Assembly: GCF_000091665.1 (NCBI RefSeq)
Contig: NC_000909.1
Span: forward strand, 1,339,460 to 1,371,459
Source of the DNA: Methanocaldococcus jannaschii DSM 2661
GTDB lineage: Archaea > AGJL01 > Methanococci > Methanococcales > Methanocaldococcaceae
Reading direction: 5' to 3'
Length of the DNA: 32,000 bases
This document shows positions 2,515 through 19,894 of the stretch, piece by piece (positions within the stretch are counted from its first letter, which is position 1; each line of letters begins with the position of its first letter). Below the pieces are notes generated by a model. That model saw nothing but the letters and a program-made list of their open reading frames with translations, had not been told where the DNA came from and did no database searches. Both the position numbers and the translations under genes were made by a program.

Positions 2515-4341
2515 ATGAGAAAGTTAATATTTATGGCCTTGTTAATGTCATTGCTGTTTATTGGGACTGTATTTGGATATGGAGATAATGGACCACTATA
2601 TGTGGCATATTACGAAAAATATAACATAACAGGTAACACTACAGGTGATGGCTTAGTATCTTCAACAATAGAAAGTATAACTGGATATATTGTAATTAAC
2701 AACACTGGGACTACAATAAATGATACTTTATACGATGTTTGGGTGGCAGTTAATATATCCAACAACATAACTGGACCAGAAGTTTATGTAAATGGAACTC
2801 CAAAAGGGGTTTTTATTGAGAGTTCAGCTCCTGCATATACAAACTTACCAAATGCAAACACATACATACACATCCCAATACTACCAAATAACAGCTATGT
2901 TATAATTAAATTTGCTATAGATAAATCAATAACTGGAGTTCCATTGATAATCAACGAAACATATAGTGATACTAAAATTCCATCAGAAAGATTATCAAAT
3001 TGGAGTGTCTATTTAAACATAAGCAGAAATGTTTCAGCACTACCGGCAACAGATACACCAGTTTCTGTTATTATGACAAAATATCTAAGTAACGACCCAA
3101 ATAATTATGGAAGTGACACTTGGAATTTCTTAAATATAACAGGTGCTATAGCCAACGAAGGTTCAATAACACTCTGGGATGGTCCTTACTTCTTACCAGG
3201 ATACAACGATTCATTAACCTGGACAGGAGTCGTAATAAATACTACTAAAAATGCAACCATTACAATCAACATAACAGGAAACAACACTTACACAAATAGA
3301 ACAGGAACCTTAATGAAATATGGTTTTGCTGTTATCTTCTTTGAATTCAATGGAACTAAATCAGGAACAAAAATTGAAGGGATTTATGCAACAGGATATG
3401 GTGGAGTAAGTGCAACCAAGGAAGGACCATTCTTAAATGCATCAAGCGGTAAGTATGAAATATGGTACGAAAGTGCTAATGTATCAAACAAGGCATCAAG
3501 TTACTACTTTAACTTAACTCATGTGACAATATGGGCTGTAAATGGTAGTAATCCAGTAATATTAGACCCATTTAATATAACATTATTAATCCCTAATTCA
3601 AAACAGACGTCCTCACCTAATGAAATATTATCTCCAGGAAGCGTTTGGAGTTCAACTAAATATGCCTTCACATTTGATGGAATTCCAGTTGTCTGGGCAA
3701 ACTGTACATTTAAGGTAGCAGACGAGAACATAACATTAATAAATAGAAGTATTAATGAATACTCAACAAAGTACGGAAGTTCCTATGTTGTTGTTGAGGA
3801 GATTTATGTTGTGGGTAGTTATTTGATTAAGGTGACTAAGCATATTGTTCCGGATGCGGATGGGACTTATGATATTTATATAGTTGTGGAGAATATTGGT
3901 AGTGTGAAGACTCCTGAGTATGTGTATGTTTATGATTTGATTCCTAAGAACTTCACCGTCTCAGATGAGTGGGTTAATCAATCAAGTATGTTGATTGCTG
4001 AAGGAAATCACACCATTACAACAAATCCAAGGTATAATTTAAGCATGTGGTGGGCGTTACATGCAATATATCCAGGAGCAGATGGGGACGGTAACTGGAA
4101 CGACACTGCTGAAATACTTGCAAATAAAACAGTAGTCATACACTACAAACTAAACGGAACTGGCGAATTCTACCCAAGCGACGCATTTATCGTTGGTATC
4201 GACCCTACAAACTCACTACTACCAACAACCTCACCAAAAATAACAACAGTAGCCGGAACAGTAGAAAACAACTCAGAACCATTCCTTGCATTATTGACCC
4301 TACTTGTAGGGTTGGGAATCATAATAAGAAGGGTAATGTAA
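2515..4341 (+). CDS. Secreted, heavily sequon-rich cell-surface protein with C-terminal Thr/Pro linker, TM anchor and basic tail (MJ1393-like)
   Basis: 608-aa ORF with GAGGTGA RBS. N-terminal signal peptide MRKLIFMALLMSLLFIGTVFG. About 36 N-X-S/T sequons by hand count. C-terminus is PTNSLLPTTSPKITT...SEPFLALLTLLVGLGIIIRRVM. Paralogous to the next gene. Confidence 0.85.
   Translation: MRKLIFMALLMSLLFIGTVFGYGDNGPLYVAYYEKYNITGNTTGDGLVSSTIESITGYIVINNTGTTINDTLYDVWVAVNISNNITGPEVYVNGTPKGVFIESSAPAYTNLPNANTYIHIPILPNNSYVIIKFAIDKSITGVPLIINETYSDTKIPSERLSNWSVYLNISRNVSALPATDTPVSVIMTKYLSNDPNNYGSDTWNFLNITGAIANEGSITLWDGPYFLPGYNDSLTWTGVVINTTKNATITINITGNNTYTNRTGTLMKYGFAVIFFEFNGTKSGTKIEGIYATGYGGVSATKEGPFLNASSGKYEIWYESANVSNKASSYYFNLTHVTIWAVNGSNPVILDPFNITLLIPNSKQTSSPNEILSPGSVWSSTKYAFTFDGIPVVWANCTFKVADENITLINRSINEYSTKYGSSYVVVEEIYVVGSYLIKVTKHIVPDADGTYDIYIVVENIGSVKTPEYVYVYDLIPKNFTVSDEWVNQSSMLIAEGNHTITTNPRYNLSMWWALHAIYPGADGDGNWNDTAEILANKTVVIHYKLNGTGEFYPSDAFIVGIDPTNSLLPTTSPKITTVAGTVENNSEPFLALLTLLVGLGIIIRRVM
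3775..4273 (+). repeat. 499-bp segment identical to 6813-7311 (copy 1)
   Basis: Base-by-base reading of both copies shows no mismatch. Identity starts at GGAAGTTCCTATG and stops at GAAAACAACT, just before the TM anchor codons. Confidence 0.95.
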
Positions 4342-4427: not shown

Positions 4428-7391
4428 GTGATGTGGGGCATGCCAAATATAAAATTAAAATTCATATATTTATGTATTTTACTGTTCGTATTTATGGCAT
4501 CAATGTTAAACAGTGTTTCTGGATTAAAAACAATATTCTACGATGATTTTGAAAATTGGAGTGGGTGGTATAACTACAGTAGTGGGGCTGTAGAGCAATC
4601 TTCTAATTATGCACATTCAGGAATATATTCCCTTAGAAAGTTTCTAAATGATGACCCAAATGGTGGATACAAACTAATTGGGAAGGAAATTGGAAGGGAT
4701 ATTGTAATGGAAGGTTGGATTTATAGACCTTTGCCATATGTTAGCGGAAGATGGGATAGAATAGGTATTGAGGACGAGAATTTCAACGGATACTCTATAA
4801 GAATAGAGCACGACTATAACAAAATTGCAATAGAAACTCGAGAAAATGGTATTGCTGTAAATACTTTAGTAATAACTAACTGGAATCCTCCAGAAAATCA
4901 GTGGTATTATTTTAAGTTTTATATCTACTCAAATGGAACTTTAAGATTAGAAGTTTATTATGAGAATGGTTCATTAGGAGCTACTGTCTCAGCAATAGAT
5001 AACATCTATACTAAGTTCGATAGAGTTGTTGTGCATGGAGGACAAGATTACTATGTTGATGATTTGAGGATTTCAGATTTATATCCTCCACTAAGGGTAA
5101 GATATATTGAAGAGTACAACGCAACTGCTACTGTGGATGGAACAGGAAAAACAAACTATTCCTATGGTTTAACGGGACATATCATTATTGAAAATACTGC
5201 CCCTTATAAAGAAGATACTTTAAACGATGTGTGGGTAGCAGTGGATATAAAAAATAATGCAAGTGGTTTGAGATTAGTTTATAATGGAACTCCAAAAGGG
5301 GTTTTTATTGAGAGTTCTGCTCCTGCTTATACAAACTTACCAAATGCAAACACATACATACACATCCCAATACTACCAAATAACAGCTATGTGGAATATG
5401 AGTTTGATATCGATGCATCTCAAACCCTACCAATATTAGTAAATGAAACTTACGATGTTACAAAAATACCAGCAAATAAAATGTCAGAATGGACTGTAAA
5501 TTTAATTGTATATTTAAACAAAAATCTCGTTCCTAATGGAGAAAATGTCAATGTTAATGTTATAAAATATCTAAGTAATGGGCAGTTTTATGATAACTTT
5601 GAAAATTGGACTGGTTGGAATCAGTATAAGAACGGGATAGTTCAATGGTCATCTATTCAATCTCATTCTGGAAATTACTCTTTAGAAAAATATGGGATTT
5701 CAACAAGTTTAAACAACGATCCAAATGGAGGGTACAAATTACTTCCAAAAGAAATTGGAAGGGATGTAGTTATAAGTGGATGGGTATATAGACCGAGCAA
5801 CTGGGGAGGAGGCCCTATAGACAGGATTGGTTTGGAGGATGAGAATTTTGATGGATATTCATTTGAGGTAAATCACTACAGTAATTACATATCAATTGAT
5901 AGAAGAACTAATGGAAATCCTACAGAAATTAGTCCTGAAGTTTATTGGAATCCTCCAGAGGATGAATGGTATTACTTCGAACTAAAAATTTATTCAAATG
6001 GAACAATAACATTCTCAACTTATTATCAAAATGGTTCCTTAGCCGCAACTGTCTCAACAATAGACAATACCTATACAAAGTTTGATAGGGTTGTTATTCA
6101 TGGAGGTTATGTTTATTATGTTGATGATTTGGAAGTGAATTCAAAAAACTTCGACTTTTATGGAGATAAAAACTGGAAGTATCTTGAAATAACATCTGCA
6201 AATTCAAGTGAAGGAACAGCAGTTTTATTTGATGGGGACTATTTCAAAAAAGATTACAATACCTCAAATCTAAATGCAATAAATTGGACAAATATTACCT
6301 TAAATTGGAGTAATGATAGTGCAACTTTGGTATTTAATGTATTGGGAAATTATTCATATAGTGAAAGGGATAATATTTTAGCAAAGTATGGATTTGCTAA
6401 AATACTATTTAATTACAATGGGACCAATACAAACACATCTATAAAAGGTGTTTATGCATCTGGAAGTTATAGTATTTCAACAGATCATGGAACTACGGGA
6501 GAAATAAACATTTGGATAGAAAATGTAACATTTAAAAATGATGCAAAATCATATTCCTTTAATTTAACGAATCTTAATATATGGGCAGTAAATAAATCTG
6601 CTTATGAGTTGTATTGGAATCCATTTAACAAATCTATCTGGATAGATGGGAGTAATTACACTATAACTCCAAATATTGACATACCTCCAGGAGAAGTATG
6701 GAACTCTAAAACCTACAACTTCACATTTAGTGGAGTTCCAATCGTTTGGGCAAACTGCTCATTTACACTGTCAAAAAAAGATTATATCCTTTTAAATGAA
6801 GTAAGTCAAATAGGAAGTTCCTATGTTGTTGTTGAGGAGATTTATGTTGTGGGTAGTTATTTGATTAAGGTGACTAAGCATATTGTTCCGGATGCGGATG
6901 GGACTTATGATATTTATATAGTTGTGGAGAATATTGGTAGTGTGAAGACTCCTGAGTATGTGTATGTTTATGATTTGATTCCTAAGAACTTCACCGTCTC
7001 AGATGAGTGGGTTAATCAATCAAGTATGTTGATTGCTGAAGGAAATCACACCATTACAACAAATCCAAGGTATAATTTAAGCATGTGGTGGGCGTTACAT
7101 GCAATATATCCAGGAGCAGATGGGGACGGTAACTGGAACGACACTGCTGAAATACTTGCAAATAAAACAGTAGTCATACACTACAAACTAAACGGAACTG
7201 GCGAATTCTACCCAAGCGACGCATTTATCGTTGGTATCGACCCTACAAACTCACTACTACCAACAACCTCACCAAAAATAACAACAGTAGCCGGAACAGT
7301 AGAAAACAACTTTGAGATATTTTTAATACTGATAAACGTTATCTTTGGATTAGGTATATTAACAAAGAGGAATATAAGGAATAATAAATAA
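4428..7391 (+). CDS. Large surface protein: 2515-gene-like scaffold carrying two inserted ~180-aa jelly-roll (ConA/LamG-like) modules, with a C-terminal TM anchor (MJ1394-like)
   Basis: 987-aa ORF. The start is ambiguous (GTG 4428, ATG 4431, or ATG 4440 after GGTGA at 4427-4431). Signal peptide present. Internal duplicated modules lie at 4536-5075 and 5586-6140 (FYD[DN]FENW...DPNGGYKL...RIG[IL]EDENF[ND]GYS...NPPE..WYYF...YSNGT...TKFDRVV[VI]HGG..YYVDDL). The C-terminal 166 aa are identical to the previous gene. Confidence 0.85.
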   Translation: MMWGMPNIKLKFIYLCILLFVFMASMLNSVSGLKTIFYDDFENWSGWYNYSSGAVEQSSNYAHSGIYSLRKFLNDDPNGGYKLIGKEIGRDIVMEGWIYRPLPYVSGRWDRIGIEDENFNGYSIRIEHDYNKIAIETRENGIAVNTLVITNWNPPENQWYYFKFYIYSNGTLRLEVYYENGSLGATVSAIDNIYTKFDRVVVHGGQDYYVDDLRISDLYPPLRVRYIEEYNATATVDGTGKTNYSYGLTGHIIIENTAPYKEDTLNDVWVAVDIKNNASGLRLVYNGTPKGVFIESSAPAYTNLPNANTYIHIPILPNNSYVEYEFDIDASQTLPILVNETYDVTKIPANKMSEWTVNLIVYLNKNLVPNGENVNVNVIKYLSNGQFYDNFENWTGWNQYKNGIVQWSSIQSHSGNYSLEKYGISTSLNNDPNGGYKLLPKEIGRDVVISGWVYRPSNWGGGPIDRIGLEDENFDGYSFEVNHYSNYISIDRRTNGNPTEISPEVYWNPPEDEWYYFELKIYSNGTITFSTYYQNGSLAATVSTIDNTYTKFDRVVIHGGYVYYVDDLEVNSKNFDFYGDKNWKYLEITSANSSEGTAVLFDGDYFKKDYNTSNLNAINWTNITLNWSNDSATLVFNVLGNYSYSERDNILAKYGFAKILFNYNGTNTNTSIKGVYASGSYSISTDHGTTGEINIWIENVTFKNDAKSYSFNLTNLNIWAVNKSAYELYWNPFNKSIWIDGSNYTITPNIDIPPGEVWNSKTYNFTFSGVPIVWANCSFTLSKKDYILLNEVSQIGSSYVVVEEIYVVGSYLIKVTKHIVPDADGTYDIYIVVENIGSVKTPEYVYVYDLIPKNFTVSDEWVNQSSMLIAEGNHTITTNPRYNLSMWWALHAIYPGADGDGNWNDTAEILANKTVVIHYKLNGTGEFYPSDAFIVGIDPTNSLLPTTSPKITTVAGTVENNFEIFLILINVIFGLGILTKRNIRNNK
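6813..7311 (+). repeat. 499-bp segment identical to 3775-4273 (copy 2)
   Basis: Same evidence as copy 1; the offset is 3038 nt. A second, shorter block, 2791-2900 vs 5283-5392, is 110 bp with 2 synonymous mismatches. Confidence 0.95.
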
Positions 7392-8110: not shown

Positions 8111-8168
8111 AGAAAATAAGGAAGATAAGAAGAATAAAAACTAATAATCTCAATAATTGTCTAATATT

Positions 8169-8189
8169 TGTTCTATAAATTTTATATAC
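8169..8189 (+). promoter_or_regulatory. Shared promoter-region motif, copy 2 (TGTTCTATAAATtttatATAC), 54 nt upstream of the giant gene start
   Basis: The 13-mer TTGTTCTATAAAT (8168-8180) is identical to 16940-16952. It overlaps a perfect TTTATATA box (8181-8188). Confidence 0.5.
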
Positions 8190-8242
8190 TACCTATACAT
8201 TACTTTACTTTTGAACAGTGTTAAAAATTTCAATGGGATAAT

Positions 8243-11200
8243 ATGAAATCCTATTTAAAGAATATTTCAATATTTGTATTCACTATTTTATTGCTTTCAA
8301 ACGTGAGTTTAGGTTTAAATGTATCAACAACAAACAACAACAGTAATTTTGAATTAAATAATTCATTGATATATAAGTTAAACAATTCCTTAACAAACAC
8401 CACTAATAATAGTGGTAGCATAATAATCAATAATACAACAGATACAAACAAAGAAAAAAATGAGTGTTATTTAAACATTACTATTAATGGTTATAGAGTT
8501 ATAGTAAAAACTAATGGAGAAGTTTTTGGATTTGCAAATAAAACGCCCTTAAAGTTTATCAAAATAGGTGATAACGAATATATAATCTCTCCAATAGTTT
8601 TAAATGTTCCAATAGAAATTTACTCAAAATTCAATGATAAAATATTACATAGAACAGTTATTTTAAATTACACAAAACCAGAAAAAGAAAAAAAAGAAAC
8701 AAACATAAAAAAAGAAGAATTACATTATCTAAATGTCTCATTCAACAATTTTAAGTTGATTGTTAAAACAAATGGGAAACCCTATGCTAAATATTTAGAC
8801 CTCAATATAAAAGTTAAGACTAAAAAAATAAAAAAACATGAATACTTGGTATATCCTCTAATTCTAAATAAAACAATCATTATTTATGCAAAATTCAAAA
8901 ATGAGACATTGAATAGAACAATATTTTTAAATTACTCTATCGAGGAAAATACGACAACGAATAAAACCGTTATATTGAAAAACGTTTATTTCCCATCAGA
9001 AAAAATAGTTATAAAAACAAATTTTAAGCCACATACTGCATATATTGTAACCCCTAACAATAAAATAATACATCTAAAAGTTCATAAAAAAGGGAAGTTT
9101 TATATCTTATCCACAAAACTAAAAAAGAATGTTATATTAGGAAATTACTCAGTAGTTGTTGATGGGATTAAAAAAACCTTTGCTGTAGATTATTACAAAA
9201 TTAATGCAAAATTGATAGATAATAGATTTATCGTTGGAAACGTATCCTACTATGTTAAAGAACCGAAGTTTATAACTTGCATTGTAGATAAAAAAGAAAT
9301 TAATATTTCACTAATAAATGGGGCCTTTGAAATTCCTTTAGATTATTTAATACCCAAGTTAAATATCTCAAAACCAGAAAAAATTAAAAAAATAATTTTA
9401 ATTTGTGGAAATGCAAAAGAAAAGATAAAAGTTAAATTCAAAAATAAAGAAGAAATTAAAAAGCTAATTTCCTATGACCCAGTCAATAAGGAGATAATTA
9501 TTAAACTTGAAGGTAGTGAAAAAGAGATTAAGAAGTTATTGAAAAGATACGAAAAAAGAAAAAAATACAAGATTTCAAAAATAGTAAAGATTTACAATTA
9601 TAGTATTGTAGAAATCAAACTTAAAGCAGATAAAGAAATTCTAAAAGATTACAACTTACCTGAAAATATTCTAAATACAACTGAGATAGTGAAAAAAATA
9701 AGCAGTAATAAAATTAGAGTTGAAGTTAATAATAAAGTAGATGGGGTTTGGTATAGATTCAGCTGTAAGATTCCAAAAGGTTATAGGGTTAAAGAAATTG
9801 TTGGAGATGATGGAAGAGTAATAAGAAATAACATTTCAATAAATAGATTAACAGGAGAGGTTATTGGAGAAGTAAGATGGTATATTGAAAATAACACACT
9901 ATACTTCTACGACGATCCTATTTATGGATATGATATATCTTTAATTCCTCCAGCTCCAAATCATTCAATAGCTGTTGAATTATCTTATAATGGGCAAGAT
10001 TATGGTGGTTGTGGGCAGATTTCAGCAATTGTCTTTCCATATAATAAGGAGGATGATGAAACTACCGTGGCTACTTATGACCATGCAGGGAGGACTGGAG
10101 ATTACAATTATGCAAATAATATTGATGCTTACGCTGGTTCAAAAATAGCGATAAAATATACAAGTGGAGCATTAACAAGACAGTATGGGGTTTTAGGAAC
10201 TGCAGGTAGTTTGGGATGGTGGACATATTATTACCTATCTGAAATAAATAGGACAGATATTCCTTTAAATACCGTTCCAAATGGGATTTTAGAGAGTGTA
10301 ATTATAACAGATATGTATGCTCCTTGGAATAATAATGAGCTAAATATTACTCAAAAGGTTATTATTAGAGGAAATAATAAATGGTTTGCTACCATATACT
10401 ACATAAAAAATCCAACCACAAAAACATATACAAATTTAAAGTTTTTCCAAGGGATGGATTGGAATTTTAGAGGAAGCTGGTGGGGAGATGATGCATACTA
10501 TAATAGTATTGATGATGTTGTGTATGGCTACGATTCTAACGCACCTGTTGGGGATATACAATACGGAGGTTTTAAATCAAATATCCCAAGTTACGAACAT
10601 GATGTTAATTTGTACTGGAGTACGTGGTCTGATATTAGATATGATAATTTAAATAATGATTCATCATATGAGGGTGATGCAGGGACAGCATTAGCATGGA
10701 CTAAAGATTCATTAAAACCTGGCGAAATTTGGGTAGTGCCAATAATTTGGGGGTTAGGTTATAACTATACAGACATGATGAACGAAATAAATATGGGTTT
10801 AAGCCAGTTATATGATACTGGAGTTAAAAGTATAGATTACCCAAACAATGGAGACAGCTTTAACCCAAATATTGGCCCAATAATATACATAAATTCAACA
10901 ATTGCCTTATATGGATTGGTAGATGCATACAACTTGAATGTGTCAATTAATATAACACAGATAAATGGAACTTATATTTATACAAACTCAACTTTAATAA
11001 ACCTCTCAGTTCCTTATGAAGAAGAAAAACTCGTGAGCTTTCCAGTAAACATCTCAAATATGCCTTATGGAGCCTACAATATAACAATAAAGACAAATCT
11101 TCCAAATGACCAGAATACATCAAACGATGAAAAAAGCATTATAATCTATATAACATCATTTTCAGTCCAACCAAATTATCAGGAAAAGACTGGAAATGTT

Positions 11201-14200
11201 GGAGAAGAGATATTTTACAATATAACATTATATAACTTTGGAGTTGGAGGAAGATTTGATATAAATATAACCTACTTAACGAAAGGATGGACAACGAAAA
11301 TATACAACAACTCCATTTTAATAGCTGAAGATGCCAATGGGGATGGAATCTGGGATTATATAAACCCAAATTATGATTTAAACTCAAATAATTTGCCAGA
11401 TATCTATGTGCCAACTGGAGAGATAAATTTAACTGTCTCAAAGACAATTCCTTCAACAGCCCCATTAGGAGAGATTGATACAACTACATTAAAATTTGTT
11501 AATATAAATAATCCATCAATATTTGGAAAAACAACATTCCAGACATCAACACCATATCCTCCTTCAGTTCAAAAAACTTTCTATTTACATGGAGATACTT
11601 TAAGAACTCTAAATACTTCAATACCTACAACAATTAACAACTACACAACAATTAATAGCAATTCATTAGCTTCATGGATACAATATCCAAGATTCGCAGA
11701 CAACTTTACAGTTGTAGGAAAAATTCCAATTTTGCTTTATATAAATGACCCAAACGTTATATTTGGAACTGAAATGCATAAAATTGTTGTTTCGTTAATG
11801 GCCACAAATGGAATTGATTCCTTTACTTTAGGAAGTGATGTTGAGTATCTATACTTAGATGATACTATAAAATCTTACATTTTCAATATAACCTTAGATT
11901 CAATAATTACAATACCCAAAAACTACTATTTGGTTTTGAGAGTGGAAAATCAAATATCTTCTAACTCAATAAACATCTATCATAATTCAACATATCCATC
12001 CAATATAACGCTAAACACTACGACTTATGTTAATGTTTATAACATATTTTCAGATAAAAACGTTTATCTTCCAAATGAAAATGTTACAATATTTGCAAAT
12101 ATTACAGACCCTATTGGTTCTTACGATATAAGCGGGGCAAATATAACTGTGTATTATCCAAACGGTAGTGTATATATCAACTCTTCAATGCTACTACAGG
12201 AAATAGATAAAAACTCCCCATCACTTTGGAAGCTCTATAATTACTCATTTAGCCTCCCAGAGTCAGGAAAATATCTTATTACAATAACTGGAATCGAATC
12301 TAATGGTGTAATTTCGAAGAAAAACTATACCATATACTGCGGATATGAAATTCAGGGCTATGTAAAAGAGGACTTTGGAACCCTTGGAAAAGAAGATAGT
12401 GAAGATAAAGGAATTTATGGGGTTAATGTATCTCTACTTGAAGACAGCAATAATGATGGTATTCCAGATATTGGAGATACCATAGTAAATTCAACAACAA
12501 CAGATATTTTTGGTCATTATTCCTTCTTAGTTTATAACTCCTCAAAAACTTACTTTGTGGTAGTGAATTCAAGAACTGTAGGAACTACAAGAGGTTTAAA
12601 CCCTCAATATAGCAAAAATGACATCTGGGCTGAAGAAACATATCAAACAGTATATACTCCAATAAACTCTTCTCAATGGATTGCCAACGGAAATGCTTCA
12701 ATATTCCCAGATAAGCTTCTATTAACAACAGATGATTATGGTGAAGCAGGTAGTGTTTGGTATTACAAGCCGGTTAATCTATCTGAGGATTTGGTTGTTG
12801 AGTTTTATGCGTATTTGGGAGACAATCCTGATGGAGCAGATGGTATAACCTTTACCTTGCAATCGTTGGGAACTAACGAATTAGGTGGAACTGGAGGAGA
12901 TTTGGGTTATGGTGGAATTTCTCCGAGTGTAGCGGTTGAAGTTGATACTTGGCTCAACGATTTTGATGCTCCAGCAACAACCGACCATATTGCAATAGAT
13001 GTTAACGGCAACATAAACCACACTTACAACTCCTTAACTTACCCAACACCAAACCCTTACGATTTAGGTAATGTTGAGGATGGAAGAGAACACTTAATAA
13101 AAATCGTATGGAATGCAACAACAAAAACACTCCAAGTATATTTCGATGGCAATTTATCATTAACATGGAATAAGGATATAACCCAAATTATAGGAAACTC
13201 AGCTTACTTCGGATTCACAGGAGGAACGGGAGGAGCAAAAAATCTCCAGTATGTTAAGCCAATATACGTAAAAAATGGGGATGGGTATATAATAAATCCA
13301 ACTTATGGAGTAGTTGAGATGTTTGGAGGAAGAGACCCTAATGAAGAAGATAATTGGGAAGATGGAAAATATGAACACTACTGTTTGATAAATCTAAATT
13401 CATATAGTGGGAAAAATATAACATTTGGATTCAGCTTTGATGTAATAACAAATACGAAATCTACGGGGCAGGGTAGTTTTTCCCAATTTATAAAAAATGC
13501 AAATGCAATTTATGGGAAAGATGAGAGTTATTTCAGAATACCAAATATCGACGCAAAGAATGGAAATCACTACATTTATACAAGTGGAAATAAAATATTA
13601 GACAATTTGACTATTGTCAATGGTTCAACTCAGATTAATGGAACCATCATTTTATCAGGATTACAATGGATAGCTAACGGTAACGCATACATAAATAATT
13701 CAAATAATCTAACTTTGATACTAACGCCTGATGACTACAACCAAAAAGGTAGTGTTTGGTATTACAAGCCGGTTAATCTATCTGAGGATTTGGTTGTTGA
13801 GTTTTATGCGTATTTGGGAGACAATCCTGATGGAGCAGATGGTATAACCTTTACCTTGCAATCGTTGGGGACTAACGAATTAGGTGGAACTGGAGGAGAT
13901 TTGGGTTATGGTGGAATTTCTCCGAGTGTAGCGGTGGAGGTTGATACTTGGCTTAACGATTTTGACAGCCCAGCAACAACCGACCATATTGCAATAGATG
14001 TTGATGGGAACTTAAATCACACTTACAACTCCTTAACTTACTCAACACCAAACCCATACGATTTAGGTAATGTTGAGGATGGAAGAGAACACTTAATAAA
14101 AATCGTATGGAATGCAACAACAAAAACACTCCAAGTATATTTCGATGGCAATTTAGCATTAACATGGAATAAAGACATAACCCAAATTATAGGAAACTCA

Positions 14201-16927
14201 ACTTATTTCGGATTCACAGGAGGAACAGGAGGAGCAAAAAACCTACAATACGTTAAGCCAACATATGTGAAAAATGGGGATAATGTTTTAAATCTCGAAG
14301 AAATATCTCCAAATCCAATTATTGACAATGTGGGGGCTGATACATACATTGGAAATATATTCTTTGAAAATGTCAGTGTTGGAATATTAGGAAATGAAAC
14401 TGGGCTAAATAATTTAACATTAAAGAGTTGTGGAATTTATGGAAAAATATTAAATGCAGGGGTTAAGTTAGTTGATTATGATTGGAGTTTGCAGAATTAT
14501 CCATTGTATATTGACAATTTAACAATAAACGCCTCTGGAGGATATGGAATTTCAATGTTGAACAAAATATGGGCTATGTTGTATAACTCTCAAATATCTT
14601 TAAAAAACGGTGTAGGGATTTATTGGGCAAACTGGGCTGGTGGTTTTGGAAACATAACAATCTATAATATAACTATAAGCTCATGTAATCAAGGATTGGT
14701 TTTATATAAAGATGGAAATGGAATAAAACTAATAAACTCTCAGATTAAGAATTCCGTTTATGAGGGAGTGTATTCAAAGAACTCAACTTTAGAAATACTT
14801 AACTCTTCAATAATTAATAACTCTATTGGAATCTATGCAAATATATCAAGCATATTGGTGAATAATTCCCTTATATATAAAAATAGATATGAAGGTTTAT
14901 TATTAGAGAATTCATCCTCCTCAATATTGAATTCAAATATAATGAACAATAGCATAGGAATATATTTAAAAGAAAACTACATCTCAAAAATTCAAAAATC
15001 GAATATTTCATATAATGCCTATGGAATTGAAATAGTTAATTCATCTAACGTATATATAAATTCATCAAATATATTTAATGCAAGCACAGATGGAATTGCA
15101 ATATTTAATGGAGAAAATGTAAGTGTTGAAAACTCTCTATTGTATAATAACAATTACTCAATACTCTCTTATGGTAATTTATCAAACCTCAGTGTGTTGA
15201 ATTCATTATTAAGAGATTCAATAAACAACAGTATTGATATTGAAGTCCCTTCTGATGGATTTTTGAATAATTTAAAACTTTATAACTCAAGTGTATTAAA
15301 CAGCGGAAGCTATGGGTTGTTTATCTATTCGTTGGGAAGTGCTTCAAATGTAAATATATCCAAATCACTAATAAACGGCTCCTACAAAGATGGAATTTAC
15401 ATCTATGGAGTAAATGCTATAAACATAGTTAATAATAACATAACCAATAACGGTTTGATTGGAGGAGACCCAGCAGGAAGTGGAATAAAAATCAGTGGAA
15501 ACTATACCAAGGGAGTTTTAATTTTAAATAACAATATATCTCACAACTTGGGTAATGGTATTTCTTTAGAAGGGTTGTGGAGCAGAACATTATGTGATGT
15601 TAAAGTTGAAAACAACATAATTTCAAATAATGGTATTGAAGAAAATAGCGGTAATGGAATATACATAGGAGGAAGAGTTGAGAATGTCTCTATATTTAAT
15701 AACACGATTCAATACAGCGATGCTCAGGCAATTTTAATTCAAGAGGCAAATGGATGGAATTCTTGGGATTGGATTGGAACAAATATATCCATTATAAACA
15801 ACACAATTCAATACAATGGATTAACTGTCACAATAGGAAATATAACCGCAGGAATAACTGTTGGGGCTTATGGAGTTTATAATCAAGATAATGGATATAT
15901 AATAATAGAGGGTAATAAAATAATAAACAACAATCTCTGTCCAAATCCAACTTATGGTGGAAAAGTTGGAGGAATTGAGGTTTATGGGTTAAATGAGAGT
16001 TGGATTAGCTTAGAATTTAATATCTCAAAGAATATCATAGCAAACAACTCTGCCTATGGAATTTTAATAGGGGCAAGCAAAGACATCAACATAATTAATA
16101 ACACAATCTTCAACAATGAAAAGGGAATTACAATTCCAAACTGGGATTTTGTTCCTTACAATATAATAATCTCCAAAAACTCAATTTACAACAACTCTCT
16201 ACTCGGAATTGACTTAGATGATGATAATGTAACTCTAAATGATGGGCTATTGAACTATAATGAAGCAAATCATGGTATTGACTATCCAATAATTACCTAT
16301 GCTGAGTTAAACGGAGATAACTTAACAGTTAAAGGATACATTGGAAATGGAACTGGCAGTTCAAACTTTGCAAATGCGGTAGTTGAGATTTATTTAGTTA
16401 AAAATTTAAGTGGCGGAGATAATTTAATAGGAAATAATATTTCTTCAGATGGCACTGTATTGAATGATACCTATGGAGAAAGTTGGATTTATTTGGGAAG
16501 TTTGATTGCTGATAGTAATGGATTTTTCAGTGGAACAATAAATGTTTCTGGAAAAGGGGTTGGAGATGAATCTTTACTAACTGCAACAGCAACGATAAAA
16601 GGTATTGGAACATCAGAATTTGGAAGAAACTATCTCTTAATTAAAAAGTTCTTCAACATAACTGGAACTATAGTAATGCTTCCAAACGGCTACAACATAA
16701 CAATAAAATCATATAATACAACAAGAGATGTTTATGTTTATTGGTATAAGCCAGATAATATTGAAGTAATCAATATTTCAGGGGATTATGATGAAAATGG
16801 AACCTATGGAAACACCTACTGGTTTAAATTTAATGTGATAAATGCAAATGAGACAATGAACATATCAATAACAACCAATATAACAACAGTTGAGGGACTT
16901 ATTATCGGTATTGACCCAAAAAAATAA
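8243..16927 (+). CDS. Giant (2894 aa) secreted multidomain surface protein/adhesin with tandem N-terminal modules, CARDB-like and Cna-B-like folds, two L-type lectin domains and a long right-handed beta-helix (MJ1396-like)
   Basis: Single uninterrupted ORF. Domains read by motif:
- Signal peptide MKSYLKNISIFVFTILLLSNVSLG.
- Repeated ~85-aa modules at ~8468-8700 and ~8725-8950 (YLN[IV][TS].N...[VI]VKTNG...NRT[VI].LNY).
- CARDB-like segment at ~10900-11160 (ends NDQNTSNDEKSIIIYI).
- Cna-B/SdrD-B-like segment at ~12344-12600 (YEIQGYV...GIYGVNVSL...TTTDIFGHYSF).
- Two legume-lectin-like domains (ADGITF, VAVEVDTW, DHIAIDVNG, YFGFTGGTGG).
- Dozens of PbH1-type beta-helix turns at ~14300-16200 (N.I..N...GI...S.N..I.NN).
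- The protein ends LIIGIDPKK with no TM anchor. Confidence 0.9.
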   Translation: MKSYLKNISIFVFTILLLSNVSLGLNVSTTNNNSNFELNNSLIYKLNNSLTNTTNNSGSIIINNTTDTNKEKNECYLNITINGYRVIVKTNGEVFGFANKTPLKFIKIGDNEYIISPIVLNVPIEIYSKFNDKILHRTVILNYTKPEKEKKETNIKKEELHYLNVSFNNFKLIVKTNGKPYAKYLDLNIKVKTKKIKKHEYLVYPLILNKTIIIYAKFKNETLNRTIFLNYSIEENTTTNKTVILKNVYFPSEKIVIKTNFKPHTAYIVTPNNKIIHLKVHKKGKFYILSTKLKKNVILGNYSVVVDGIKKTFAVDYYKINAKLIDNRFIVGNVSYYVKEPKFITCIVDKKEINISLINGAFEIPLDYLIPKLNISKPEKIKKIILICGNAKEKIKVKFKNKEEIKKLISYDPVNKEIIIKLEGSEKEIKKLLKRYEKRKKYKISKIVKIYNYSIVEIKLKADKEILKDYNLPENILNTTEIVKKISSNKIRVEVNNKVDGVWYRFSCKIPKGYRVKEIVGDDGRVIRNNISINRLTGEVIGEVRWYIENNTLYFYDDPIYGYDISLIPPAPNHSIAVELSYNGQDYGGCGQISAIVFPYNKEDDETTVATYDHAGRTGDYNYANNIDAYAGSKIAIKYTSGALTRQYGVLGTAGSLGWWTYYYLSEINRTDIPLNTVPNGILESVIITDMYAPWNNNELNITQKVIIRGNNKWFATIYYIKNPTTKTYTNLKFFQGMDWNFRGSWWGDDAYYNSIDDVVYGYDSNAPVGDIQYGGFKSNIPSYEHDVNLYWSTWSDIRYDNLNNDSSYEGDAGTALAWTKDSLKPGEIWVVPIIWGLGYNYTDMMNEINMGLSQLYDTGVKSIDYPNNGDSFNPNIGPIIYINSTIALYGLVDAYNLNVSINITQINGTYIYTNSTLINLSVPYEEEKLVSFPVNISNMPYGAYNITIKTNLPNDQNTSNDEKSIIIYITSFSVQPNYQEKTGNVGEEIFYNITLYNFGVGGRFDINITYLTKGWTTKIYNNSILIAEDANGDGIWDYINPNYDLNSNNLPDIYVPTGEINLTVSKTIPSTAPLGEIDTTTLKFVNINNPSIFGKTTFQTSTPYPPSVQKTFYLHGDTLRTLNTSIPTTINNYTTINSNSLASWIQYPRFADNFTVVGKIPILLYINDPNVIFGTEMHKIVVSLMATNGIDSFTLGSDVEYLYLDDTIKSYIFNITLDSIITIPKNYYLVLRVENQISSNSINIYHNSTYPSNITLNTTTYVNVYNIFSDKNVYLPNENVTIFANITDPIGSYDISGANITVYYPNGSVYINSSMLLQEIDKNSPSLWKLYNYSFSLPESGKYLITITGIESNGVISKKNYTIYCGYEIQGYVKEDFGTLGKEDSEDKGIYGVNVSLLEDSNNDGIPDIGDTIVNSTTTDIFGHYSFLVYNSSKTYFVVVNSRTVGTTRGLNPQYSKNDIWAEETYQTVYTPINSSQWIANGNASIFPDKLLLTTDDYGEAGSVWYYKPVNLSEDLVVEFYAYLGDNPDGADGITFTLQSLGTNELGGTGGDLGYGGISPSVAVEVDTWLNDFDAPATTDHIAIDVNGNINHTYNSLTYPTPNPYDLGNVEDGREHLIKIVWNATTKTLQVYFDGNLSLTWNKDITQIIGNSAYFGFTGGTGGAKNLQYVKPIYVKNGDGYIINPTYGVVEMFGGRDPNEEDNWEDGKYEHYCLINLNSYSGKNITFGFSFDVITNTKSTGQGSFSQFIKNANAIYGKDESYFRIPNIDAKNGNHYIYTSGNKILDNLTIVNGSTQINGTIILSGLQWIANGNAYINNSNNLTLILTPDDYNQKGSVWYYKPVNLSEDLVVEFYAYLGDNPDGADGITFTLQSLGTNELGGTGGDLGYGGISPSVAVEVDTWLNDFDSPATTDHIAIDVDGNLNHTYNSLTYSTPNPYDLGNVEDGREHLIKIVWNATTKTLQVYFDGNLALTWNKDITQIIGNSTYFGFTGGTGGAKNLQYVKPTYVKNGDNVLNLEEISPNPIIDNVGADTYIGNIFFENVSVGILGNETGLNNLTLKSCGIYGKILNAGVKLVDYDWSLQNYPLYIDNLTINASGGYGISMLNKIWAMLYNSQISLKNGVGIYWANWAGGFGNITIYNITISSCNQGLVLYKDGNGIKLINSQIKNSVYEGVYSKNSTLEILNSSIINNSIGIYANISSILVNNSLIYKNRYEGLLLENSSSSILNSNIMNNSIGIYLKENYISKIQKSNISYNAYGIEIVNSSNVYINSSNIFNASTDGIAIFNGENVSVENSLLYNNNYSILSYGNLSNLSVLNSLLRDSINNSIDIEVPSDGFLNNLKLYNSSVLNSGSYGLFIYSLGSASNVNISKSLINGSYKDGIYIYGVNAINIVNNNITNNGLIGGDPAGSGIKISGNYTKGVLILNNNISHNLGNGISLEGLWSRTLCDVKVENNIISNNGIEENSGNGIYIGGRVENVSIFNNTIQYSDAQAILIQEANGWNSWDWIGTNISIINNTIQYNGLTVTIGNITAGITVGAYGVYNQDNGYIIIEGNKIINNNLCPNPTYGGKVGGIEVYGLNESWISLEFNISKNIIANNSAYGILIGASKDINIINNTIFNNEKGITIPNWDFVPYNIIISKNSIYNNSLLGIDLDDDNVTLNDGLLNYNEANHGIDYPIITYAELNGDNLTVKGYIGNGTGSSNFANAVVEIYLVKNLSGGDNLIGNNISSDGTVLNDTYGESWIYLGSLIADSNGFFSGTINVSGKGVGDESLLTATATIKGIGTSEFGRNYLLIKKFFNITGTIVMLPNGYNITIKSYNTTRDVYVYWYKPDNIEVINISGDYDENGTYGNTYWFKFNVINANETMNISITTNITTVEGLIIGIDPKK
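12674..13282 (+). repeat. L-type lectin module, DNA copy 1
   Basis: Aligns with 13664-14281. The core 12749-13282 vs 13748-14281 (offset 999) shows only scattered substitutions, and the first ~118 nt of the core are identical. There are 7 aa differences in the 178-aa core. Confidence 0.9.
13664..14281 (+). repeat. L-type lectin module, DNA copy 2
   Basis: Same evidence as copy 1. The N-terminal edge of copy 2 is 9 nt longer, so the offset changes from 990 to 999. Confidence 0.9.
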
Positions 16928-16940
16928 TTCGTCAAAAAAT

Positions 16941-16961
16941 TGTTCTATAAATCTTAAATAC
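16941..16961 (+). promoter_or_regulatory. Shared promoter-region motif, copy 3 (TGTTCTATAAATcttaaATAC), 32 nt upstream of ATG 16993
   Basis: Lies in the 65-nt gap after the giant gene. It shares the 13-mer with copy 2 and has the same ATAC spacing in all three copies. Confidence 0.45.
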
Positions 16962-16983: not shown

Positions 16984-18444
16984 TTGGGGACCATGAGATC
17001 GGTATATTTAATTATTATTATTATACTATTTTTTGCATTTATTTCTTTAAGTTTTGGGGAAATATATGAGTATAGGGGGGTTGTATTTTATCCAAATGGT
17101 TCTCAAACAGTTGATGTATCTAAGTTACATATAGATTATGAAAATCCCGATGCTTTTAGCATCTATATATCTTATAGAAACTCCTCCTTTTATCTTCCAT
17201 ATTCAAAAAATATAACTCTTAATCTCCCCCCAAAAAAATTTAACATATCCATAACTATATCTGCAAGTAGAATCAGCAGAGATGAATGGAGGGTATATTA
17301 TAAAATAATCAATAACTATCCCTACAGTATCTTATTTAACATATCTTTTCCAGGAGGATTTAACATTAAAAATGCATCAGTCTTAGTTCCTGCCAAGTCC
17401 TATAAAATAATAACTTTATCAAAAATACAAAATTCAAATATTTTATATTTCGGAGATAGCAATATAAGTTTTGAAGTACCCGCTAAATTGATGATAAGAT
17501 ATTCTCTGCCAATACCATTTTCCATAATAAAGTCAAATAAAATTTTAAGTAATGGTTCTATTGAATGGACAGCTATTTATATAATAAAAAATGATAAGAA
17601 TGTCTCTTTAAATGTAAATGCAAGCTATTGGGCTGTTGTTAATAATACAAAAATAGATTTTGGTAATTATTCCTATATTATAGAACCTAATGAGAATGTA
17701 TCACAGTCATTTAATATCACTTCAGATTATGTTCCTATTTTTTATCTTAAATTTTATGCATGGCGAGATGTTTATGAAACTATAAAAATAAAACCAGCAA
17801 TTAAGGTTGATAATTCATACATTATTGGAATAGGAAAAGTTGAAGGTTTAAGTTTTAACATTCCATATTATAACTATATGGAAAGAGAAATAAAAAAGAA
17901 AAAAGAAGAAAAGGAAAACGAAGAGTCATCTAAAACTATAAACCAAATGCAGAGACATAAAAAAGAAGAGAAGTCACAGACTCAGGAGACAAAAAAACCT
18001 TCTAAAAATGAGATGAATAAACAAGAGAAAGAAAGAAAGTACCCACTAATAATTGAAGAAAAATTTAAAAAAGTAGCTGCTGCTATAGCCACAGTTACAA
18101 CTACTTCAATAACTGCTATGTTGATTCCTCCAATATTTAGGAGACGTTCATATATTGTTGATAAAGGGATTTTCTCAATTAAAGACCTTGAACTACTAAG
18201 TGGCACAGTATATGTTCCAGAGGGTTGTAAGTTAGGAAATATATTACCTGGAGGTATAACTATTATTAAACTTACTGATGTAGAAAAAGACCTTGCAAGG
18301 GACTTACATGAAATTTATGATATTCCTCTAAATTCAGCAAAAGCCATTATACTGGGTGTTAAGTATGGAGGTAGAGTATTTTTAAGTGATAAAAAGGCGT
18401 ATGATGTGGCAGTTGAAATAGGACTTGAAGCATATCTTTTTTAA
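16984..18444 (+). CDS. Single-pass membrane protein: signal peptide, sequon-rich ectodomain, K/E-rich linker, TM helix, ~100-aa cytoplasmic domain of unknown function (MJ1397-like)
   Basis: The ORF track starts at TTG 16984; ATG 16993 (MRSVYLIIIIILFFAFISLSFG) is more likely. The K/E-rich stretch is REIKKKKEEKENEE...KQEKERK. The TM helix VAAAIATVTTTSITAMLIPPIF is followed by RRRS (about 18072-18150). The C-terminal domain is YIVDKGIFSIKDLELL...VAVEIGLEAYLF. Confidence 0.8.
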   Translation: MGTMRSVYLIIIIILFFAFISLSFGEIYEYRGVVFYPNGSQTVDVSKLHIDYENPDAFSIYISYRNSSFYLPYSKNITLNLPPKKFNISITISASRISRDEWRVYYKIINNYPYSILFNISFPGGFNIKNASVLVPAKSYKIITLSKIQNSNILYFGDSNISFEVPAKLMIRYSLPIPFSIIKSNKILSNGSIEWTAIYIIKNDKNVSLNVNASYWAVVNNTKIDFGNYSYIIEPNENVSQSFNITSDYVPIFYLKFYAWRDVYETIKIKPAIKVDNSYIIGIGKVEGLSFNIPYYNYMEREIKKKKEEKENEESSKTINQMQRHKKEEKSQTQETKKPSKNEMNKQEKERKYPLIIEEKFKKVAAAIATVTTTSITAMLIPPIFRRRSYIVDKGIFSIKDLELLSGTVYVPEGCKLGNILPGGITIIKLTDVEKDLARDLHEIYDIPLNSAKAIILGVKYGGRVFLSDKKAYDVAVEIGLEAYLF

Positions 18445-18450
18445 ATAGAG

Positions 18451-18711
18451 GTGAAGTATGTGGTAGAAGAAAACAATAAAGAAATATTAATAAAATTGAA
18501 GAAAATTAGAAAAATGCAAAGGAGAAGAACGCTCATTGGTTCATTTTTAGTCTCAACATCCATAATAATTTCTGAAATTTCAGTGTTTATATTTGTTGGT
18601 GTTTTTAATATAGACATAAGCTTTGGATTGTTATTATTGTTTATTTCGTTAATTTTTTTATCGTTAGGGCTCTATTTAATCATGTATCCTCCACCTATAG
18701 TCATAGATTAG
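18451..18711 (+). CDS. Small two-TM membrane protein, translationally coupled between the flanking genes
   Basis: 86 codons from GTG 18451, which lies 6 nt after the previous stop and inside a GAGGTGA that could instead be the RBS. An alternative ATG at 18514 gives MQRRRTLIGSF.... Two hydrophobic helices. The next gene starts 7 nt after its stop. Confidence 0.55.
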   Translation: MKYVVEENNKEILIKLKKIRKMQRRRTLIGSFLVSTSIIISEISVFIFVGVFNIDISFGLLLLFISLIFLSLGLYLIMYPPPIVID

Positions 18712-18718
18712 TGAAATC

Positions 18719-19894
18719 ATGAAAAAGGACACTTTATTACTTATAATTTTAATCTTATTTTGCATCGTTCATGTTTATGGTATTTATGTACATATTTATG
18801 GTATTAATGTTAGCTTAGAAAATGTTAGTCAATACCTTTACAACACTACGGTTTATCTTTCTTATGAGAATGGAACTCCATGTTTTTATATTGGAGAGAA
18901 AAAAGAATTCGTGATTATTCCTCCATATATAAAAGTTGATAGAGACATAGCTCCTTTAATTAAAAAACTAAGATTTAAAATAGAGAATAAAAGTTATAAC
19001 CTTATCATTACAAAGAAAAATGTAAATACAAACAAGATGGCTATTATTTTTACTTCAATAAATGGTTCGAGAGAAGTTAATGGCAATAAGACAATTATCT
19101 GGATAAAAGACCCACTCAAATTAAAACAATCAGAGGTTGAGGCATTATATGAATTACCAGAAAAAGGAGAGGTTATAGCAAGATATAAAGACGGAAAACC
19201 AGCGGCGATAAAGATAAATAATAAAATATATGTTGGTTTTAAGCCAGATGAGGATGTTTTAGCTAATCTTATTTATATACATATAGTTAAGAAAACATCA
19301 AATCCTCTGCCCTATATACTTTTTACTGTTTTCTTAACTCTTGCATCTTTAATGCTAACTTTTCAAGAAACCCTAAAAAAGAAGTTTTTGGAGCTAATAT
19401 CTGCACTAGCATCAGTAAAAGTATTTATCCTCTCTCGTATAAATCTTCTTGATGAAGAAAAAGTCCTTCTAAATGACACAAGAAGAGAAATTTACAATTA
19501 TATTTTAGACAATCCTGGATGTCATTTAAGAGAACTTTCTAAAAACCTAAATAAACCAGTATCAACACTTACGTGGCATTTAAGAATATTAGAAAAAGCA
19601 AATCTAATTAAAAGTAAAAAATTTGGTAATCGATTAATTTACTATCCAGCAGATATGGATATGAGGGATTTGCCACTGTTATATTTAAAAAATGAAACGC
19701 AAAAAAGCATATTTGAATATTTATTAAAAAGTCCTGCTCATTTAAGAAAGATTGCTAAAGATTTGAATTTGAATGTTGAAACTGTAAGGTATAATTTAAA
19801 AAAACTGGAAAATCTTGGAATTGTAAAATCTAAAGAAGAGGGAAACAGAATAGTATATTATATAAATGAATCTATCTTAAAGTTTCATAAATAA
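18719..19894 (+). CDS. Membrane-tethered transcription regulator: N-terminal signal-anchor, ~185-aa extracytoplasmic domain, second TM, two cytoplasmic ArsR-type winged-helix HTH domains (MJ1398-like)
   Basis: 391-aa ORF.
- TM1: [17 protein letters not shown].
- TM2: [19 protein letters not shown] (~19306-19365).
- wHTH 1: [55 protein letters not shown].
- wHTH 2: [54 protein letters not shown]. Confidence 0.85.

Follow-up and report, generated by a model that had tools for sequence, protein, structure and literature searches.

Three surface-protein genes of Methanocaldococcus jannaschii DSM 2661 share a short motif in their promoter regions, and the question raised by this locus is what the motif is and which protein reads it. 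The window, the whole stretch of DNA analyzed, is 32,000 nucleotides long (G000:C1:1339460-1371459, where G000 is the M. jannaschii DSM 2661 genome and other G numbers denote related genomes), and its genes are those that we take to be MJ1392-MJ1401. A first-pass annotation had described the motif as TGTTCYATAAAT-N5-ATAC, 21 nt in length. It is the promoter-proximal part of a cis-regulatory box of ~23 bp that is joined at an invariant distance to the TATA box, and this box is real, specific, conserved and fixed in position. Comparison of sequences and genomes suggests that the box is probably the operator, or upstream activating site, of a membrane-anchored regulator encoded at 18719-19894, acting next to the B recognition element (BRE).

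A box at a fixed distance from the TATA box

The motif matches the + strand of the window at 2419-2439, 8169-8189 and 16941-16961, in each case within the short spacer before an ATG (2515, 8243 and 16993), as had been annotated. It did not occur in 100 dinucleotide-preserving shuffles, and these three are the only matches in the whole genome (1,664,970 + 58,407 + 16,550 bp), all inside the surface-gene island. Alignment of the three spacers shows that the 21-nt motif, although real, makes up only the 3' two-thirds of a longer block without gaps, in which TGTC-N7-TGTTCYATAAAT runs directly into a TATA box of the TWTATATA type. The conserved block begins 11 nt further upstream than annotated, where copies 1 and 2 have TGTC (2408 and 8158) and copy 3 has CGTC (16930). 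Its box part is made up of YATAAAT, which lies over the BRE positions, and, upstream of this, of the direct repeat TGTC-N7-TGTTC, which has a period of 11 bp and spans about -54 to -39. Copy 1 had been thought to deviate by one base from the exact 13-mer TTGTTCTATAAAT of the other two copies; it deviates by two (the first base and the Y position), and the lower figure holds only for a 12-mer.

The published promoter model for M. jannaschii has the TATA consensus TWTATATA, a BRE at -40 to -32 and a transcription start site (TSS) 23±2 nt after the TATA box (Zhang et al. 2009, PMC2699501); the TSS positions given below are predictions by this spacing rule. In 28 of the 31 related sites described in the next section, the octamer at -31 to -24 has at most two mismatches to TWTATATA, always in the same register, which identifies it as the TATA box. 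The other register, with CTATAAAT as the TATA box, was rejected, as it would put G, not A, at -34. The TATA-like element of the annotation is thereby redefined: ATAAAT lies on the BRE, and TGTTC is indeed upstream of the true TATA box, which is N5-ATA. The fixed spacing of ATAC likewise stands for its ATA, the end of the TATA box, but not for its C, kept in only 58% of the 31 related sites.

The features of the three promoters are listed below. Scores are from a matrix trained on 17 sites from other genomes only and are given for the 22-nt core (core22) and the full 38 nt (full38).

2408-2430, + strand: box copy 1 (TGTC 2408-2411, N7, TGTTC 2419-2423, CATAAAT 2424-2430 at the BRE positions); core22 28.4
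2431-2438, + strand: TATA box of promoter 1, TATTTATA, one mismatch to TWTATATA; predicted TSS ~2462 (A after T)
8158-8180, + strand: box copy 2 (TGTC 8158-8161, N7, TGTTC 8169-8173, TATAAAT 8174-8180); core22 28.0, full38 42.3
8181-8188, + strand: TATA box of promoter 2, TTTATATA, consensus (0 mismatches); predicted TSS ~8213
16930-16952, + strand: box copy 3 (CGTC 16930-16933, N7, TGTTC 16941-16945, TATAAAT); core22 26.8, full38 40.3
16953-16960, + strand: TATA box of promoter 3, CTTAAATA, two mismatches; predicted TSS ~16984-16986

An RNA element is unlikely, because the box lies upstream of the predicted TSS; an Rfam scan of the window found no RNA family. Box copy 3 begins only 3 nt past the stop codon of the preceding giant gene, and the predicted leader of the operon behind it is only ~7 nt long (GGGGACC, window 16984-16995).

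The box is not a generic promoter feature. The matrix, built without M. jannaschii sites, ranks the three window copies 1-3 genome-wide (core22 28.4, 28.0 and 26.8), with the next match at 18.8 and a maximum of 17.3 in a reversed-genome control; the motif, whose commonness in the genome the annotation had left to a scan, is thus not common. TGTTC occurs at the box register in only 8 of the 5,775 TATA-like octamers (TWTWWATA) of the genome, which is background level, as other offsets give counts of 1-8. Spacers of N5, N6, N8 and N9 between the half-sites gave 0-2 chance-like matches in M. jannaschii, compared with four real N7 sites. These four, including one just outside the window, are the only credible box sites in this genome, which is not the distribution of a generic, housekeeping promoter element.

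Conservation across Methanococcales and the genes behind the box

Orthologous and paralogous promoters yielded 31 sites from 13 Methanococcales genomes in two families; they align without a single gap and stand at the heads of island transcription units. All 31 have TGT at -43 to -41, T at -52 and C at -51, whereas T at -54 is kept in 30 and G at -53 in 26. The remaining consensus positions of the box are AA at -49/-48, T/C at -40, C at -39, T at -38, A at -37 and AA at -35/-34. When each family is aligned separately, the box and the TATA box form the only conserved block, and the flanks are unalignable. Conservation in orthologous promoters, which the annotation had proposed as a check, therefore holds for the box in 13 genomes while its surroundings diverge. 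The block is sequence-specific, is shared by few promoters and is kept in their orthologues although the flanks have diverged; these are sequence properties expected of an operator or regulon box.

Within the family, the box precedes orthologues of all three types of gene found behind it in the window: those of the giant gene in six genomes (G006, G007, G011, G016, G013 and G014), those of the MJ1397-type gene in five (G005, G006, G011, G012 and G014) and those of the MJ1393-type gene in six (G005, G006, G007, G011, G013 and G016). These proteins are only 45-79% identical. The box is also present in the second family of the order, where it sits at the heads of transcription units despite a shuffled gene order. 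The arrangement in G026 is box-giant gene, box-MJ1393-type gene with two small genes, and box-MJ1397-type gene, small protein and regulator, and in G039 a single box precedes regulator, giant gene, MJ1397-type gene and small protein. The regulator operon of G025 and G016 follows the box-driven giant gene with no spacer of its own. Spacer variants one base shorter occur in G032 and G039. Upstream of the MJ1393-type gene of G007 (C39, L065), a tandem duplication of ~44 nt includes the upstream part of the box, and its second copy runs straight into the leader, without a BRE or TATA box.

In the window, the box is followed by the genes below.

2515-4341, + strand: MJ1393-type secreted protein of 608 aa, anchored at its C terminus and encoded by the first gene downstream of box 1
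8243-16927, + strand: 2894-aa secreted giant protein with L-type lectin domains and a beta-helix, behind box 2
16993-18444, + strand: 483-aa membrane protein (MJ1397-type) with signal peptide, ectodomain, transmembrane (TM) helix 361-379 and cytoplasmic tail, first gene of the regulator operon
18451-18711, + strand: 86-aa membrane protein with two TM helices, a conserved operon partner, in the regulator operon
18719-19894, + strand: 391-aa candidate cognate regulator, third gene of the tightly packed operon

The view that the targets are surface genes, correct for the three window copies, does not extend to the fourth site, which precedes genes for cytoplasmic proteins. This box, TATC-N7-TGTTC followed by TATTTATA, lies on the minus strand at G000:C1:~1338412-1338443 (L079 ~5413-5444), ~1 kb to the left of the window. 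It was found with the matrix from other genomes (full38 28.1, control maximum 16.8), in the spacer upstream of a 106-aa open reading frame (ORF) of unknown family that is followed by a Roadblock/LC7 gene. True orthologues of the 106-aa ORF keep the box in G012, with TGTC as the first half-site, and in G006, where the gene is ~190 kb away from the island. A good box, TGTC-N7-TGTCC with AATATATA, was also observed in G006 (L162, C1:~943521); because it precedes another Roadblock/LC7 gene, of 133 aa, it provides a second link between the box and this family.

The candidate regulator and competing readings

The protein encoded at 18719-19894 has a DNA-binding part and TM segments in one polypeptide, the architecture of a transmembrane transcription regulator in the sense of PMC10269533, and is a putative member of this class. 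It consists of an N-terminal signal/TM helix, a beta-rich ectodomain (residues 29-192), a TM helix (197-214) and two cytoplasmic winged helix-turn-helix (wHTH) domains (253-310 and 326-382), both matching the Pfam profiles HTH_5/HTH_20/HTH_24. Hydrophobic segments span residues 1-29 and 195-244. The AlphaFold2 model (mean pLDDT 84) has the same layout, with helices at 2-25 and 197-240, the beta-rich ectodomain and two wHTH domains. Among 5.8 billion proteins the family forms 45 clusters, none of which bears a more precise name than 'wHTH/ArsR regulator', and its members are all from Methanococcales and a few Archaeoglobus-like metagenome-assembled genomes (MAGs). The two predicted recognition helices (~281-293 and ~353-365) hardly vary within the family but are unlike each other, which fits a pair of half-sites that are likewise conserved and non-identical.

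The genomic association of box and regulator points in the same direction. The regulator gene belongs to a box-headed unit in 10 of the 11 genomes where this could be traced, and the box of G039 immediately precedes it. In the eleventh genome, G032, the regulator promoter has only TGTC-N6-TGTAC, one base shorter and below the matrix threshold. A methanogen MAG contig (L164) carries only the three-gene module, between the genes for Sec61-beta and CfbE and with no giant gene nearby, and this module is headed by a perfect box (score 30.4, next best 7.9 in 21 kb). Archaeoglobus-like contigs keep a module of giant gene, MJ1397-type gene, small protein and regulator; before the ATG of the first island gene they have a variant, YGTC-N6/7-CGTWW, with a TATA box at 24 nt from the ATG. 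This variant is only suggestive of a relationship to the box, and the changes in the recognition helices, set against the variant half-sites, are too few for an analysis of co-variation. The position of the TATA box at two of these loci (L157 ~110-165 and L165 ~799-855) would imply leaderless transcripts. In one Archaeoglobus-like MAG (L159 11080-11990), a TFB (TFIIB) paralogue, called as two pieces, directly follows the regulator gene, at the end of which there is a box-like TGTC-N7-TGTAC.

Genomes that have lost the regulator are instructive. In G001, all that is left of the island is the C-terminal wHTH part of the regulator, and there is no box; an open 173-aa frame at this place (L083, C1:~217723-218226), in a deletion between cimA and an AAA-kinase gene, corresponds to the two wHTH domains of the regulator (74-80% identity) and is a deletion scar or possibly a soluble remnant. 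G009 is likewise without the regulator, and its island is 92-98% identical to that of G005, which has lost only the regulator. Both boxes of G009 have been lost through local lesions; in one promoter, an 11-nt deletion with substitutions lies exactly over TGTC..TGTTC and leaves BRE, TATA box and downstream sequence intact. G005 retains two perfect boxes, and G013, also without a regulator, has boxes that are partly degenerate. The contrast among these three genomes fits a relaxed constraint on the box after loss of the regulator, in one or two lineages only.

The wHTH protein encoded at 18719-19894 is, from these comparisons, the most likely binder of the box. In the mechanism that we propose, the two unlike wHTH domains that it carries on a single chain would make contact with the pair of non-identical half-sites, one helical turn apart, and would thereby control the recruitment of TFB and TBP at the adjoining BRE and TATA box. 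The regulon in M. jannaschii would comprise the MJ1393-type unit, the 2894-aa giant gene, the operon of the MJ1397-type gene, small membrane protein and regulator, and the small ORF with the Roadblock/LC7 gene, so that the regulator would also control its own operon (autoregulation).

Several points weigh against this assignment. Box and regulator are physically linked in one island, and much of their co-occurrence is trivial for that reason. High-scoring boxes have persisted in G005 and G013 without a regulator gene. The allocation of half-sites to the two wHTH domains is a proposal; a fold search of the PDB returned only generic tandem winged-helix and ArsR/SmtB matches and no DNA-bound analogue that would fix the binding mode. 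Two further points of this kind concern activation, toward which we lean only slightly over repression: the near-invariant YATAAAT covers the BRE, where a bound protein could block TFB, and the island genes are intact in three genomes without the regulator, both of which would favor repression. So would the near-consensus TATA boxes and the ArsR-like character of the wHTH domains. Activation is favored by the position of the specific half-sites upstream of the canonical BRE, the usual place of archaeal activators, by the invariant phasing, and by the membrane-tethered regulators of the ArnR (PMC6396743) and ToxR/CadC (PMC10269533) types, which are mostly activators.

The box could instead be a genuine operator for another trans-acting factor, such as a soluble transcription factor encoded elsewhere, with the membrane regulator as one more target. 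We regard this as rather unlikely. It would accommodate the boxes retained in G005 and G013, and it would not need a membrane-tethered protein to reach sites that are up to 190 kb apart in G006. Some genomes do encode soluble 181-aa double-wHTH paralogues of the regulator, with 36-38% identity, but none is present in M. jannaschii, and a domain scan of the window proteins found no other DNA-binding protein in the island. The minimal module of L164, with its box but no other island gene, and the loss of both boxes in the regulator-less G009 also weigh against a factor from elsewhere.

It is very improbable that the block is simply an unusually strong or extended core promoter, a variant of BRE and TATA box read by TBP and TFB alone with no dedicated regulator. 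Its 3' half does coincide with the BRE and TATA box, the TATA boxes are near consensus, and A at -34 is as in typical promoters. However, typical M. jannaschii promoters have a BRE of only 2.63 bits, and 134 mapped promoters have no conserved element beyond BRE, TATA box, proximal promoter element (PPE) and initiator (Inr), with nothing upstream of -40 (Zhang et al. 2009, PMC2699501), whereas TGTC at -54 and TGTTC at -43 are near-invariant here and at background frequency elsewhere. The genome has one TFB gene and one TBP gene, so the box is not the signature of an alternative basal factor, and the lesion in G009 removed the upstream half and kept BRE and TATA box. Least probable of all is that the copies are leftovers of promoter duplication, or recombination sites that shuffle island cassettes, with no role in transcription control: gene order varies between genomes with boxes at cassette borders, and the duplication in G007 takes in the box, but ungapped conservation across family-level divergence between randomized flanks, the fixed register to the TATA box, the constant position ahead of a start codon and on the coding strand, the lack of a recombinase in the island and the presence of boxes at unlinked loci all argue against it.

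Assignment of the box to the membrane-anchored regulator can be extended to a complete circuit, although this is a tentative picture that we would not yet favor. A membrane sensor with two unlike wHTH domains might directly switch on giant adhesin-like proteins, its own operon and cytoplasmic Roadblock/LC7 (MglB-like) proteins through a direct repeat abutting the BRE, and this circuit might be conserved from Methanococcales to Archaeoglobus-like archaea. If true, it would represent an archaeal one-component pathway from surface contact to envelope and polarity that could be reconstituted in M. jannaschii in vitro transcription.

Related systems and minor elements

Upstream activating sites of archaeal activators that recruit TBP or TFB include those of Ptr2 in M. 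jannaschii, TFB-RF1 in Pyrococcus and EarA at the Methanococcus fla promoter. Like the box, they lie immediately upstream of the BRE and TATA box in fixed phasing, and EarA acts on surface-appendage genes in Methanococcales (EarA is cited in PMC6396743). Unlike the candidate reader of the box, these proteins are soluble, belong to other families (Lrp/AsnC in the case of Ptr2) and bind other site sequences.

The membrane-bound one-component HTH regulators ArnR/ArnR1 of Sulfolobus acidocaldarius also control genes for a cell-surface structure, with boxes at flaB (PMC6396743). The ArnR boxes are located just upstream of the BRE (-43 to -84), two elements are needed together, and ArnR is an activator. 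However, in ArnR the HTH is N-terminal and is followed by a HAMP/sensor part and by two TM helices at the C terminus, and its boxes are inverted repeats, TCGAC-N5-GTCGA (PMC6396743), whereas here a signal/TM helix, ectodomain and TM helix are followed by two C-terminal wHTH domains, and the direct repeat abuts and overlaps the BRE. With the opposite domain order and a direct repeat of different sequence, the regulator does not belong to the ArnR family and is a functional analogue only.

The bacterial regulators ToxR, TcpP and CadC similarly combine an extracytoplasmic sensor, a TM segment and a winged-helix part in one polypeptide, and they read direct-repeat-like sites near envelope or virulence promoters while anchored in the membrane (PMC10269533). 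These regulators often have a small membrane partner (ToxS, TcpH), comparable to the 86-aa partner here. Their wHTH is of the OmpR type, N-terminal and cytoplasmic (a reversed topology), there is one per chain, and the machinery is bacterial. The text of the survey of transmembrane regulators (PMC10269533) contains neither Methanocaldococcus nor any other Methanococcales name. Each of the two wHTH domains also matches the structures of ArsR/SmtB-family winged-helix repressors (CzrA and SmtB) and of Pyrococcus Phr, the TM-scores being 0.6-0.7 over the target. Those repressors are soluble homodimers on palindromes, unlike the two dissimilar tandem wHTH domains on a membrane protein and the asymmetric direct repeat at this locus. 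ArnR, the Ptr2/TFB-RF1/EarA group and the bacterial transmembrane regulators are thus functional analogues, none of them a sequence relative.

A literature search by gene names and motif letters gave nothing relevant, and Zhang et al. (2009) do not mention these genes. The box and its probable regulator would constitute a new, well-defined pair of local regulator and operator abutting an archaeal core promoter, of a kind that is not in itself surprising. To our knowledge, an operator has been defined for very few archaeal regulons, and Sulfolobus ArnR is the only membrane-tethered archaeal regulator known in detail. The locus offers a sharply defined 23-bp box, an invariant BRE/TATA geometry, four target promoters and a clear candidate regulator, and M. 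jannaschii has a classic reconstituted transcription system; with all of these at hand, the question of how a membrane-bound factor acts on TBP and TFB is directly testable. The box also provides a first regulatory handle on the uncharacterized giant lectin/beta-helix surface proteins of hyperthermophilic methanogens.

A few further sequences were observed near the box or resemble it. A half-box, TGTTCTATAAAT with TATAAATA and without TGTC, is located at G000:C1:1396576-1396596 on the minus strand (L080 ~2077-2097), between two + strand genes and antisense into the 3' end of the upstream gene, and it is conserved in G013 (L008). It was left out of the site count on account of the absent TGTC and the antisense orientation into a gene end, and may be an antisense promoter or a chance match. 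Weak box-like blocks, TGTC-N7-TGTAC/TGTGC, are found in M. jannaschii (G000:C1:~1597770, degenerate), G006 (L160) and G011 (L161). They lie in the conserved promoter of a 516-aa protein, the membership of which in the regulon is doubtful.

Another string, AAATTTTTGAAAA, occurs at 2387-2399 of the window and is separated from box 1 by 8 nt. Strings like it are found before the box in MJ1393-type promoters (G005, G006 and G011) and in giant-like promoters (G013 and G014), and one lies in the leader of the ORF at the fourth site. It may be a further cis element or what is left of a terminator. The 12-mer of this string has 10 occurrences genome-wide, 3 of them in this neighborhood.
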